Shown here piece after piece: positions 3,860 to 9,328 of a stretch of DNA of 10,031 bases. The translations under genes were made by a program, and so were the position numbers. Location: the UHGV virus genome UHGV-0117372; one strand, given 5' to 3'. Below the pieces are notes generated by a model that worked only from the letters and a program-made list of their open reading frames with translations, had not been told where the DNA came from and ran no database searches. The DNA is from a virus. The first letter of the stretch is position 1; each line of letters opens with the position of its first letter.

Positions 3860-5343
3860 TGGCCAGAAGTTGCGTAACGGATCCTCGTTGGCGCGAGCTG
3901 GTGGCGCTATATCGTTATGACTGGATTGCTGCCGCTGATGTTTTGTTCGGCAAAACACCTACCTGGCAGCAGGATCTGATTATTGAGTCTGTGCAGGAAC
4001 AGGGTAGCAAGACATCTGTTTCGTCTGGTCACGGTACCGGGAAATCAGACATGACTTCTATCATGATCATGTTGTTCATAATCATGTATCCCGGTGCCCG
4101 CGCCATTATCGTTGCGAACAAAATTCAGCAGGTAATGACCGGTATATTCAAGTACATCAAGATAAACTGGGCTACTGCCACCAGCCGTTTTCCATGGCTT
4201 GCTGATTATTTTGTTCTGACAGAAACCGCTTTCTATGAGGTTACTGGTAAAGGTGTATGGACTGTAGTACCGAAGGGCTTTCGTCTGGGAAGTGAAGAAG
4301 CTCTCGCCGGTGAACACGCAGATCATCTTCTGTATATTATCGATGAAGCCTCCGGTGTCAGTGATAGAGCTTTCGGTATCATCACCGGTGCTCTTACCGG
4401 ACAGGATAACCGCATCTTATTACTGTCACAGCCTACACGCCCAAGCGGCTATTTCTACGATACTCACCATAAACTGGCCAAGCGTCCTGGTAACCCAGAT
4501 GGCGTTTATACGGCGATCACGCTTAACAGTGAGGAATCACCGCTGGTAACGCCAGAATTTATCAAAATGAAGCTGGCGGAGTACGGCGGGCGTGATAACC
4601 CTATGTACATGATTAAGGTGCGCGGCCTATTCCCTAAATCACAGGACGGCTTCCTTCTTGGACGTGATGAGGTTGAACGTGCAACGCGGCGGAAAGTTAA
4701 GATTGCCAAAGGATGGGGCTGGCTTGCATGTGTGGACGTTGCTGGTGGTACGGGACGGGATAAGTCAGTTATCAATATCATGATGGTGTCCGGCCAGCGA
4801 AATAAACGCCGTGTAATCAACTATCGAATGCTGGAATACACAGACGTTACAGAAACGCAGCTTGCCGCCAAAATTTTCGCAGAATGTAATCCTGAGCGAT
4901 TCCCCAATATCACCATAGCGATAGATGGCGATGGCCTGGGTAAAGCAACAGCGGATCTGATGTACGAGTATTATGGTATTACCGTACAGCGTATACGCTG
5001 GGGTAAAAAGATGCATAGCCGTGAAGATAAGAGCCTGTACTTTGATAAACGTGCTTATGCCAACGTTCAAGCCGCAGAGGCCGTAAAATCTGGTCGTATG
5101 AGACTGGATAAGGGTAATGAAACTATTGAGGAAGCGTCGAAAATCCCTGTAGGGATTAACTCCGCAGGTCAATGGAAGGTGATGAGTAAGGAGGATATGA
5201 AGAAAAAACTCAACCTGCACTCACCAGACCATTGGGATACATATTGTTTCGCTATGCTGGCGGATTATGTTCCCCAGGATGAAGTGCTTAGCGTCGAAGA
5301 CGAAGCGCAGGTTGATGAAGCTCTGGCATGGCTTAATGAATGA
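3859..5343 (+). CDS. pacB: Terminase large subunit PacB, 494 aa
   Basis: Walker A-like GHGTGKS near the N-terminus and a DEAS-type Walker B region ([10 protein letters not shown]). Length matches P1 PacB and the gene is translationally coupled to pacA. Confidence 0.93.
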
Positions 5344-5345
5344 AC

Positions 5346-5389
5346 ATTTGCTCTAATAAATTGTGTTTTTTAGCTACCGATGTTACATT
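5346..5389 (+). promoter_or_regulatory. C1-operator-like site (Op51-like) overlapping a candidate promoter for the immI-like module
   Basis: TTTGCTCTAATAAATTG at 5347-5363 matches the C1 operator consensus at 15 of 17 positions. It overlaps a candidate -35 TTGTGT (5361-5366) and -10 TACATT (5384-5389) with a 17-bp spacer, starting 3 bp after the pacB stop. Confidence 0.55.
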
Positions 5390-5395
5390 GAACCT

Positions 5396-5517
5396 GACCT
5401 CTTGCGCCTTGAGGCATTTTCGGTTTATGCTTATCAGGCACCTCATTAAAACGGGTGCCGGGATTGGCCTCCCGCTTAAGTCTAAGGCGATACAGACGCC
5501 GCTCGCGTCTTTTTTTT
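5396..5517 (+). ncRNA. Candidate structured small RNA or leader (c4-like antisense RNA analogue?) ending in an intrinsic terminator
   Basis: No convincing ORF with an RBS. Stem-loops at GGCACC 5437-5442 / GGTGCC 5454-5459 and CGGGA 5459-5463 / TCCCG 5470-5474, then a terminator hairpin. The loop TTGGCCT (5464-5470) is complementary to AGGCCAA (5600-5606) in the icd leader. Boundaries are approximate and the RNA is not demonstrated. Confidence 0.3.
5494..5517 (+). terminator. Rho-independent terminator or attenuator
   Basis: Stem AGACGC (5494-5499) pairs with GCGTCT (5505-5510) around a 5-nt loop and is followed by a run of T to 5517. Confidence 0.5.
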
Positions 5518-5682
5518 GTATCGGCGTACACGCACACCTCTACAATGGTGGGCTGTATGGGGCTACCTTCGGGTAGGCTGGTTACCTTGGACGCCAGTAA
5601 GGCCAACTCCGTACAGTCCACCGCCAGCAAGATTGGTCTCTTCTGCGGTGGTTACATACCAACGTCTAAGGAGGCTGCCAAT

Positions 5683-5904
5683 ATGGCTACTATCCCTACC
5701 CCAACTCATCCTGAATTTATCTGGCGCTTTTACTCCTGCCAAAAACGTCACTATCACTTCGTTATTGCACCAACAGAAGATGAGGCCCGCTCTCAGCTTC
5801 CTGACGCCCCATGTATTTTCTCTGCCCGTTTTTCCACTGATTCACGCAATTCTCTCAGTTACTGGTGCCTCCCTGTTAACGCTTCTGTTCAGGAGGGGCT
5901 ATGA
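5683..5904 (+). CDS. icd: Icd-like host cell division inhibitor, 73 aa
   Basis: ATG 5683 has a strong AAGGAGG RBS 8 nt upstream. The 73-aa product (MATIPTPTHPEFIWRFYSC...EDEARSQL...) has the FIW...EARxQL pattern of Icd-like proteins. Its stop overlaps the ant start (ATGA), as icd and ant1 do in P1 immI. The 149-aa ORF in the track is this frame extended upstream across the terminator. Confidence 0.7.
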   Translation: MATIPTPTHPEFIWRFYSCQKRHYHFVIAPTEDEARSQLPDAPCIFSARFSTDSRNSLSYWCLPVNASVQEGL

Positions 5905-7019
5905 GAACGTCATTAGTCACCCGTGAAGAGATGATCGAGGCAATTGAACAGCACACTGCCTGTATCAGCACCAGGGATATTCCCAGTGTTATAGCCAACT
6001 ACTTCATGATCACTAAACAACTTTACCGGAGAAAGGACAAGAACGCGGTTCACCGTATCCTGCTGTCTGATATTCGCGAATACCTGCTCGAACAGGGTCA
6101 TCTGAATTACGCAACCGTCGCAGCCGAAGCACGCAAGGAGGCACACAGAATGAAAGCAACTAACGTTAAATCAGAAAAAATTCATGCACCTTCAGTTCAG
6201 GAATCGGAGCTGGTGGTTGTTCAGAATCAGTCTGATGAAATTCCCGTTCTGGAATGGCAGGGAGTGCGTGTAGTGACAACCGAGACTCTTGCTAGAGGGT
6301 ATGGGACAGAAACAATCCGTATTCGCCAAAATCATCATGAGAACAAAGTACGCTTTGTTGAAGGGAAGCACTTTTTCAAAGTTGAAGGAGAATCATTGCG
6401 CGAGTTGAAGCACAGAGTAGCTTTAAACTACTCTGTAAAAATTGCTCGCAATGTTCGCTCACTCACCCTCTGGACAGAACGCGGCGCAGCCCGCCACGCT
6501 AAAATGCTCGAAACCGATCAGGCATGGGCATTCTTTGAAAAACTGGAAGACAGCTACTTCCGACAAAAAGAACAGCAACCGATCGCAATCCCCCAGACGC
6601 TTCCTGAAGCCCTACGCCTGGCTGCCGAACTGGCTGAACAAAAGCAACTTCTGGAACAGAAAGCCCACCAGCTAAATCAGCAGCTGGTGGCCGCCGCTCC
6701 TAAAGTCGATTTTGCCGACCGGGTATCAGTAGCTAAAGGGATCCTGATTGGGAATTTTGCAAAGGTTGTTGGACTTAAGCAAAACGCGCTGTTTGTCTGG
6801 TTACGGGAGAACGGCATCCTGATAGCGTCCGGTGGACGTAAAAATGTGCCGTTCCAGCAGTACATCAACGCGGGGTATTTCACGGTGAAAGAAGTGGTGC
6901 TGGATGATGAAGATGGCTACCAGATACGGTTGACGCCTCAATTAACGGGTAAAGGCCAGCAGTGGTTGACGCGTAAACTGCTCGATGCTGGCTTGTTAAA
7001 ACCGGTGGCAGCTGAATAA
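5901..7019 (+). CDS. ant: Antirepressor Ant (ORF6N plus KilA-C/ANT domains), 372 aa, with an in-frame internal start at 6151 giving a 289-aa form (Ant1/Ant2-like)
   Basis: The central region VLEWQGVRVVTTETLARGYG...FVEGKHFF fits the ORF6N antirepressor N-domain, and the C-terminal region (KVDFADRVSVAKGILIGNFAKVVG...) fits the KilA-C/ANT domain. AGGAGG precedes ATG 5901, and AAGGAGG sits 8 nt before the in-frame ATG 6151, mirroring the P1 ant1/ant2 nested pair. Confidence 0.8.
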   Translation: MRTSLVTREEMIEAIEQHTACISTRDIPSVIANYFMITKQLYRRKDKNAVHRILLSDIREYLLEQGHLNYATVAAEARKEAHRMKATNVKSEKIHAPSVQESELVVVQNQSDEIPVLEWQGVRVVTTETLARGYGTETIRIRQNHHENKVRFVEGKHFFKVEGESLRELKHRVALNYSVKIARNVRSLTLWTERGAARHAKMLETDQAWAFFEKLEDSYFRQKEQQPIAIPQTLPEALRLAAELAEQKQLLEQKAHQLNQQLVAAAPKVDFADRVSVAKGILIGNFAKVVGLKQNALFVWLRENGILIASGGRKNVPFQQYINAGYFTVKEVVLDDEDGYQIRLTPQLTGKGQQWLTRKLLDAGLLKPVAAE

Positions 7020-7051: not shown

Positions 7052-7903
7052 TTATTGCGCGCTTTCGGGGTTGTCGTTTACTGGCTGCCCCTTCTTGGTT
7101 TTACGACTGCGCGTAACTGATGCGGCTGACTTAACCTTTTTCTCTTCGCGAGTGATGGCAATTTGTTTTTTTACATTTTCAATATCTGCCAGGCGATATA
7201 TTTTTGCTTGCGGCCAGCGGTCGCAGATGATCGGTTCTATGGAGTCATAAAGGCTAAATTTTGCTTTTTCGAATTCACCGTTGATGATAATTCCATCACG
7301 GAGAGTTTCATCGCAGATAAACACGCCACACAGTGGCACATGGTAACTAACTGATTTACCATCATTGTAGTTAGGGCTACTGGAAATGTAGTGGACGCGC
7401 AGCATTGTTTCGCTAAAGCCGTGTACGCGCATACGGAATTTTTCATCCTCCGGGTACTGCCTCATTAGCTCTTTTGTTGCTTCCAGGTTCTCTATGTATT
7501 TCGCACTGTGCTCATTGATCCCCGCGCTTTTTTGGATGCGAATGTCCTTATCAATCAGATGAATAATGCGGCCAGCGGTCATGTTGACGCTGTTCACAGC
7601 TTCTGTCTGATAAGTTGTAACCTTGCGCACACCGCGAAGGATGTTAGGCACTGGATATAAAATAGTCTTTGGGATATTGAGGTCTGGGTACTGTTCCAGT
7701 TCCCGCGCCATTAAAGTCCATTTATCAATTTCAGCCTGAATGCTGTCAGTTTCTTTGAACGGTAGAACGACAACCGGGCGTACAGGACGACCGTCGCTGG
7801 CTGTATCAACGTGTTGGGCGCGTGCAACAGCTTTTTTTAGAAAGAGATCCCTGAAGCTGACGAACTCCTGGTACAGTTGTTCGCCGTAGACATAATTTAT
7901 CAT
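7052..7903 (-). CDS. c1: C1 repressor of lysis (immC), 283 aa
   Basis: The 283-aa ORF starting MINYVYGEQLYQEF matches P1 C1 in size and N-terminus as remembered. A GGAGGAGG RBS lies upstream on the minus strand and coi is directly upstream. Confidence 0.93.
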   Translation of the reverse strand: MINYVYGEQLYQEFVSFRDLFLKKAVARAQHVDTASDGRPVRPVVVLPFKETDSIQAEIDKWTLMARELEQYPDLNIPKTILYPVPNILRGVRKVTTYQTEAVNSVNMTAGRIIHLIDKDIRIQKSAGINEHSAKYIENLEATKELMRQYPEDEKFRMRVHGFSETMLRVHYISSSPNYNDGKSVSYHVPLCGVFICDETLRDGIIINGEFEKAKFSLYDSIEPIICDRWPQAKIYRLADIENVKKQIAITREEKKVKSAASVTRSRKTKKGQPVNDNPESAQ

Positions 7904-8223: not shown

Positions 8224-8341
8224 AATTATGCCTCACTGTATTGACAACACAGAGCCTGAAGCTCTGACCTACTGTTTCACCCATGATCCATGCTGGGGTA
8301 ATCTAACAACATTGCGCTGTGTGTAAGATGAGCAATGCATA

Positions 8342-9328
<987 letters not shown>

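Follow-up and report, generated by a model that had tools for sequence, protein, structure and literature searches.

The window analysed here, a stretch of 10,031 nucleotides in all, raises the question of what lies between positions 5390 and 5682, upstream of the icd gene, for which public records offer either no annotation or a spurious 'ash family' or hypothetical protein. A sequence-only reading had proposed a c4-type riboregulator in front of icd-ant, sequence-distinct from the one of P1. We consider it highly probable that this region governs, at the RNA level, an immI-type antirepressor operon of a P1-like phage-plasmid, and that it comprises a c4 RNA, a decoy and the targets of c4 in icd-ant. 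The sequences, the family membership of the RNAs, their structure and the co-variation of loops with targets carry this answer.

Genomic setting, putative operator and candidate promoters

The window belongs to a phage-plasmid like P1. Its closest sequenced phage, vB_EcoM-673R5, shows 98.6% identity and an E. coli plasmid 99.7%; most of the 10-kb window is present in at least 243 plasmids, and 116 E. coli records share the region at 99% identity or more. The gene order is phd, doc, pdcA, pdcB, lpa, pacA, pacB, the RNA/icd-ant module, c1 and coi. In P1 the c1 gene comes directly after pacB, and relative to P1 the module is an insertion. Unlike the immI of P1, it is flanked by pacB and c1 and does not adjoin sim and kilA-repL. 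That 'two short orfs and ant' are inserted at the pacB-c1 spot had already been noted, with the RNA unmentioned (PMC6906374). Phage vB_EcoM-673R5 also carries, at 42813-43021, a canonical immI that adjoins sim, matches both RF03163 and C4 and has different a/b letters (the short pairing sequences described below), so that this phage is predicted to encode two c4 RNAs. A match to the sok antitoxin RNA (RF01794, 89.7 bits) lies at 46474-46648 of the same phage, downstream of repL, and points to an addiction module of the hok/sok type.

Directly after the pacB stop codon the + strand holds a C1-repressor operator-like site, TTTGCTCTAATAAATTG (5347-5363), whose 15-nt core TTGCTCTAATAAATT is matched exactly at 5348-5362 and is identical to the P1 core. 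The site aligns with the annotated P1 operator Oc4/Op51 and overlaps the upstream promoter, and to judge from its letters C1 would bind here. The putative upstream promoter, of the P51a/P2c4 type (5361-5389, + strand), was read from the sequence and from homology to P1. It has a -35 box TTGTGT at 5361-5366, a 17-nt spacer and a TG-extended -10 box TACATT at 5384-5389, and its placement relative to the operator is that of the annotated P1 P2c4. A second candidate, of the PisrK/P51b type (5402-5431, + strand), is composed of TTGCGC (5402-5407), an 18-nt spacer and TATGCT (5426-5431), and would start transcription near G5438. Diverse modules have a -35/-10 pair equally far upstream of the GCACC start, and in Gifsy-1 the published mutant numbering, counted from a mapped start, is reproduced by counting from the first base of the isrK match (PMC4825925). 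A strict consensus scan of 5250-5750 called no + strand promoter and missed both, which is why the two are kept only as homology-based or by-eye assignments. A separate promoter for c4 was also sought by eye between the terminator described below and position 5546; only a weak TTGTAT-18-TACAAT appeared, with its start inside c4, and it was discarded.

Downstream of the region, icd (5683-5904, + strand) encodes 73 aa that are 82% identical to P1 Icd and match NCBIfam phage_ICD_like with 49.8 bits. The start codon of the antirepressor gene ant (5901-7019, + strand) overlaps the icd stop codon (ATGA). Ant contains the Pfam domains ANT/KilAC and ORF6N and is 56% identical to P1 Ant1; it appears as a mosaic, with conserved ends like those of P1 Ant1 and a middle replaced by the ORF6N domain. 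The repressor gene c1 follows on the opposite strand (7052-7903, - strand; NCBIfam phage_rep_C1 equivalog, 612 bits), and its product is presumed to be both the ligand of the operator and the target of Ant.

The c4 and isrK-type RNAs and the question of a protein

The whole window was scanned with the Rfam curated thresholds (45 for RF01695, 50 for RF01394 and 46.7 for RF03163). Two full-length matches were returned, C4 and isrK, both within 5390-5682. The C4 match (RF01695, 5541-5628, + strand) scores 75.9 bits over model positions 1-87. An RNA of the C4 family is expected to be about 77 nt long, to be cut out of a larger precursor, its 5' end being generated by RNase P, and to act as a repressor in trans. 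By register with the annotated c4 of P1, the mature RNA would here extend from about 5547 to 5625.

Folded alone, c4 adopts the canonical shape with three helices (-41.6 kcal/mol, z = -3.5 to -4.1). In the minimum-free-energy structure a long closing stem surrounds the tetraloop helix P2 and the large-loop helix P3, which is followed by a single-stranded junction. Helix P2 (5563-5576, + strand), found by Rfam, fold and compensatory pairs alike, is the hairpin CTACC (5563-5567), TTCG, GGTAG (5572-5576), which the sequence-only reading had placed correctly, as it had the intrinsic terminator. The 12-nt loop of P3 exposes the specificity sequence b', CCUUGGAC(G), at 5585-5593 (core CCUUGGAC, 5585-5592), and the other specificity sequence, a' (AGGCCAA, 5600-5606, + strand), is unpaired in the junction. 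Compensatory changes were found in 16 of the 27 base pairs of c4 across 38 sequences, which bears out the helices in homologues. The 'two nested stem-loops' formerly described have to be reassigned: the hairpins at the 5' side (5438-5458 and 5459-5474) are adjacent, and the nested ones are P2 and P3 of c4. The c4 gene itself (about 5547-5625), the b' loop at 5585-5593 and the a2 site at 5633-5639 had not been located.

Upstream of c4 lies an isrK-type RNA, the terminated c4-a1b1 element (5438-5515, + strand), which matches RF01394 with 60.8 bits over model positions 1-77. It consists of hairpin 1 (5438-5458), hairpin 2 (5459-5474), a single-stranded stretch with b1 and a terminator, and its fold reproduces three hairpins in line with the isrK model. 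The intrinsic terminator (5494-5518, + strand) is part of that model and was also called, independently of the isrK match, by a terminator scan, as a stem-loop at 5494-5510 and then eight T. The terminator recognised earlier is, in fact, part of this separate upstream RNA, which carries the a1 and b1 sites. As a possible family for the element, RF03163 (c4-a1b1) was weighed too and rejected: at 5425-5478 it reaches 20.5 bits where 46.7 are required, and this low score is why we assign the element to isrK. The sub-threshold match aligns the same two 5' hairpins, and P1 and the canonical immI of vB_EcoM-673R5 do pass the RF03163 threshold. Almost no co-variation was seen in hairpins 1 and 2, in a sample collected with a pattern that lies inside those hairpins and in which their co-variation is for that reason not assessable.

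The 3' strand of c4 has a second possible partner. In an alternative hairpin (5618-5651, + strand), identified by fold and co-variation, 5618-5624 pairs with 5645-5651, that is, with a downstream copy of the 5' strand, and a2 lies in the loop. This hairpin (-16.7 kcal/mol, z = -2.6) and the closing stem of c4 are mutually exclusive, and five of its seven pairs show compensatory changes across the 36 specificity types described below. In some types a U-run follows it and makes it terminator-like. One could read all these elements as a transcription attenuator working only in cis, in which the terminator 5494-5518 and the hairpin 5618-5651 decide on read-through into icd-ant without a trans-acting c4. 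The strong intrinsic terminator between promoter and c4 agrees with this, as does the competition between a co-varying hairpin and the c4 closing stem. Moreover, Weinberg 2010 observed that the closing stem of c4 (helix P1) sometimes shares its 3' half with a terminator hairpin, and the discussion of PMC4825925 has P4 immunity acting by premature termination. We nevertheless regard a cis-only attenuator as very unlikely, since a' and b' are unpaired in a stable, independently folding RNA and co-vary with two separate pairs of targets, since the homologous RNA is processed and acts in trans in P1/P7, P4, N15 and Gifsy-1, and since the alternative hairpin has no U-run in this window.

A trans-acting c4 thus remains our reading, and against it stands one more account of the same letters, in which they code for an 'Ash' family protein (Pfam PF10554), from AUG 5545 or from further upstream and in frame into icd, and the RNA is secondary. 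The sequence-only reading had seen no credible ORF here. This holds as far as coding signature goes, although mechanical ORFs do cross the region, at 5340-5576 and 5455-5904 on the + strand and at 5370-5630 on the - strand; the first and the last of these have no Pfam match and were rejected as genes. The ORF 5455-5904, however, scores 39.6 bits against PF10554 (threshold 26) over nt 5512-5718, and RefSeq has a pseudo 'ash family protein' at 5557-5658. Taken alone, the 46-codon stretch that begins at the AUG of c4 scores 23.2 bits, below that threshold, and AUG 5545 has no Shine-Dalgarno sequence. Of 38 sequences, 37 keep the frame of the AUG stop-free throughout c4, where 18 and 10 do so for the other two frames. 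In 31 of the 36 types the frame of the AUG stays open up to the downstream start codon, yet its relation to the frame of the downstream gene varies by type and the ORF stops early in the P1 and RCS47/D6 types. In the c4 alignment variability is much alike at the first, second and third codon positions (0.82, 0.75 and 0.85 bits), with no periodicity, and amino-acid identity is 53% where nucleotide identity is 69% (52% and 48% in the other frames), which is not the pattern of selection on a protein; the changes observed in c4 are compensatory base pairs. In Gifsy-1 a tagged 'ORF45' starting from the corresponding AUG has been detected (PMC4825925), which counts in favour of the protein.

The family itself deserves a comment. 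In P4 the PF10554 match (8330-8521, - strand) falls on an obsolete 'cI protein' CDS that contains the CI RNA (Rfam C4), and the real epsilon protein belongs to PF25738. Matches to PF10554, or to 'ash family protein' under its PGAP name, correspond to a translated c4/CI RNA gene, the leader and the first codons of icd or kil, and the 'Ash' family looks like being largely an RNA gene read as protein. We hold the 'Ash' reading of this locus to be highly unlikely and retain c4 as an RNA gene. The frame through c4, stop-free without a coding signature and here in frame with icd, may relate to the 'orf45' of Gifsy-1, and together with the alternative hairpin it suggests extra layers beyond the main model.

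Target sites and their co-variation with the c4 loops

Four sites on the + strand are complementary to c4, two upstream and two downstream of it. Site a1, UUGGCCU (5464-5470), occupies the loop of isrK hairpin 2 and is a perfect 7-bp complement of a'. The complementarity between TTGGCCT at 5464-5470 and AGGCCAA at 5600-5606 was part of the original proposal and is correct; its description of 5600-5606 as leader is not, as this is a' inside c4. Site b1, GUCUAAGG (5480-5487), forms 8 bp with b' including one G-U. In the icd leader, a2, UUGGUCU (5633-5639), forms 7 bp with a' including one G-U, and b2, CGUCUAAGG (5663-5674), forms 9 bp with b', overlaps the icd Shine-Dalgarno GGAGG (5670-5674) and lies 8 nt ahead of the icd ATG. 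The duplex energies are -11.6 kcal/mol for a1, -12.4 for b1, -8.8 for a2 and -14.5 for b2. Site a2, with its G-U, binds a' less strongly than a1 does (-8.8 kcal/mol as opposed to -11.6), and how decoy and target balance out is not predictable. The predicted fold of a longer leader from the upstream promoter (5396-5520) joins positions about 5405-5419 to the b1 region (about 5480-5489), which would open hairpin 2 (-40.8 kcal/mol, z = -2.1), so that decoy activity may differ between the transcripts of the two promoters.

The 8-nt direct repeat GTCTAAGG that had drawn attention to the locus occurs only at 5480-5487 and 5664-5671, which are b1 and b2, and its second copy overlaps the Shine-Dalgarno AAGGAGG (5668-5674) of icd (ATG at 5683), as had been noted. 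By themselves such likenesses are of limited weight: 0.14 matches of the repeat are expected by chance and 3 of 200 shuffles reach two, which makes it only moderately unlikely, and a 7-nt complementarity within 290 nt is chance-expected. We take both as real on the strength of 36 specificity types, in which these sites and the c4 loops co-vary.

These types come from a survey of 82 modules in viral contigs, collected by means of a 14-nt pattern that was taken from the invariant stretch joining the two 5' hairpins. The modules represent 36 combinations of b' and a' (29 b types and 14 a types), and in every one of the 36 types a1, a2, b1 and b2 track the letters of c4. Cognate helices are on average 8.9 nt long for b':b1, 10.4 nt for b':b2, 7.1 nt for a':a1 and 7.2 nt for a':a2, against 5.1 to 6.1 nt in non-cognate combinations, and b2 ends 3-11 nt ahead of the start codon in all 36 types. 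The a and b types are mixed across the contigs, one b' occurring with different a' and the reverse, which suggests recombination between the two sites. Two viral contigs each have two complete modules about 650 bp apart; a third has two isrK-type copies, and no c4 was found after either of them.

The a' (AGGCCAA) and b' (CCUUGGAC) of the module differ from the letters of P1, of D6 and of the RCS47 allele at the same locus, in all of which the targets have changed in step with the loops. The expectation of a sequence-distinct regulator is therefore right for the loop letters and their targets, which differ also from those of canonical immI, but not for the RNA as a whole, which is a full-length member of Rfam C4. 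Cognate duplexes reach -8.8 to -14.5 kcal/mol, whereas the c4 of the module with the canonical immI targets of vB_EcoM-673R5 gives only -2.2 to -5.5; given this weak pairing, the lineage appears to run two switches that do not cross-pair.

It may be asked at this point whether the module is an inactive relic of recombination, with pairings that were inherited and are not maintained. It is, after all, an insertion relative to P1, vB_EcoM-673R5 already has a canonical immI, and a2 has a G-U where a1 has a G-C. But all six specificity elements are still mutually complementary, icd, ant and their translational coupling are intact, the identity of 99% or more in 116 E. coli records and the occurrence of most of the window in at least 243 plasmids speak against decay, and in the RCS47 allele of this locus a and b have changed together, in coordination. 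A relic seems to us exceedingly unlikely.

A probable immI-type switch and its relatives

For a maintained immI-type switch, the following mechanism is proposed by analogy with the relatives described below. Two promoters would feed the region, the upstream one, overlapping the operator, being shut by C1 and the downstream one initiating near 5438. The terminator 5494-5518 would stop most transcripts and leave an IsrK-like RNA of about 80 nt, with a1 in a hairpin loop and b1 single-stranded. Transcripts reading through would carry c4 (about 5547-5625), which would be excised from the precursor, RNase P making its 5' end. Through b' in the P3 loop and a' in the junction, c4 would pair with b2 (5663-5671) and a2 (5633-5639) in the icd leader and block translation of icd, to which that of ant would be coupled. 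The ant gene of P1 is subject to Rho-dependent polarity. By coupling and polarity, a block of icd would keep the antirepressor off in the lysogen. The sites a1 and b1 would compete for c4 as a decoy, either in cis, within the precursor, or in trans, on the short RNA, and would set the threshold at which icd-ant escapes repression. Such a decoy is an old proposal for P1, recorded in the supplement to Weinberg 2010, where the a1b1 motif is also described (PMC2864571). The a/b letters would define immunity specificity and make the module insensitive to c4 from canonical immI or from the RCS47-type allele.

One close relative is the immI of P1 and P7, in which operator, two promoters, a1, b1, c4, a2, b2, icd and ant follow each other in the same order and at the same spacing. 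Matched against the annotated parts of P1 immI (Oc4, P2c4, P1c4, a1, b1, c4, a2, b2, icd and ant1), the layout from operator to ant agrees to within a few nucleotides. In addition, the c4 RNAs are of the same Rfam family, the operator core and the degree of Icd identity are as given above, and the ends of Ant are conserved. The differences are that P1 matches RF03163 and has no terminator detectable by the scan between b1 and c4, whereas the module is of the isrK type with a strong terminator, that the a/b letters of P1 are others, and that the middle of Ant is replaced here by the ORF6N domain. With an intrinsic terminator between b1 and c4, the module is in that respect of the P4/N15 type, behind an operator of the P1 type.

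The immunity region of the satellite phage P4 (seqA, CI RNA, seqC, kil) shows the same tandem of isrK and C4, with a/b sites repeated upstream and downstream. Its b2 overlaps the Shine-Dalgarno sequence of an Icd-like ORF that begins MATTLTPSHPEF, and the AUG of c4 is in frame with that ORF, as in the module. However, P4 has no C1 operator, its operon runs on into replication genes and not into an antirepressor gene, and its immunity is described as an antisense-dependent premature termination. In N15, itself a phage-plasmid, the anti-immunity locus immA (a small processed RNA, icd and antA/antB) gives isrK (62.4 bits) and C4 (78.8 bits) matches directly upstream of icd-like and Ant genes. That a small processed RNA controls the N15 antirepressor has been published (Ravin 1999, as cited in PMC4488713). 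The primary repressor of N15 is CB where that of the module is C1, and the specificity letters differ.

The strongest experimental backing is that of the IsrK/STnc1160 ('orf45')/AnrP locus of Gifsy-1 in Salmonella (34131-34329, - strand), where isrK, c4-a1b1 and C4 all match. Three RNAs have been reported from this locus: IsrK itself, which is short and terminated, an mRNA that arises by read-through, and STnc1160, a processed species of about 80 nt. IsrK in trans activates the downstream antirepressor (PMC4825925). If numbering starts at the first base of the isrK match, a1 is UUG28G29C30G31U and a' is AC159GCC162AA, and the positions changed in the compensatory mutants of that study, G28A/C162U and G31A/C159U, are exactly those of a1 and a', whose pairing the mutants prove in Gifsy-1 (PMC4825925). 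IsrK coincides with the c4-a1b1 match and 'orf45'/STnc1160 with the Rfam C4 match, the first AUG of 'orf45' (A107) being the AUG at the 5' end of c4. The locus differs from the module in having no icd, the antirepressor gene coming directly after b2, and its output is a Q-like antiterminator circuit. The published model was built on the 45-codon ORF and leaves c4 unmentioned, though it draws the analogy with the CI RNA of P4 (PMC4825925); beyond that analogy, our literature search found no paper linking IsrK/STnc1160 with c4.

The element thus belongs fully to both the C4 and the isrK family and is a regulator of a known kind, which supports the interpretation given by the sequence-only reading, and it would work like P1 immI, P4 immunity, N15 immA and the Gifsy-1 IsrK locus. 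The known principle is unchanged by the finding. What is new is an unannotated instance with a private specificity, which co-exists with a canonical immI and combines an operator of the P1 type with a leader of the P4 type. We are also tempted to put forward, tentatively and with more doubt than conviction, a wider reading that joins three points: two c4 switches that do not cross-pair in one lineage, a/b 'barcodes' that reassort, and an Ash family that is a translated RNA gene. Following this reading, the extra switch may be a mosaic, placed beside c1, of a P1-type operator and promoter and a P4/N15-type leader with an IsrK-terminated decoy and c4. The independent reassortment of a and b across enterobacterial phages would provide a large combinatorial set of private immunity 'barcodes', and the terminated a1b1 RNA would generally be an anti-antisense decoy.

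For annotation, the gain is a label for a hitherto unlabelled stretch in hundreds of P1-like resistance plasmids. The 36 natural specificity types are ready-made compensatory variants with which the decoy idea could be tested or mutually blind antisense regulators be built. For the phages themselves, the prediction is that this lineage has a second antirepressor switch of its own specificity, which would bear on superinfection immunity, on co-residence and on the induction of phage-plasmids that carry resistance.
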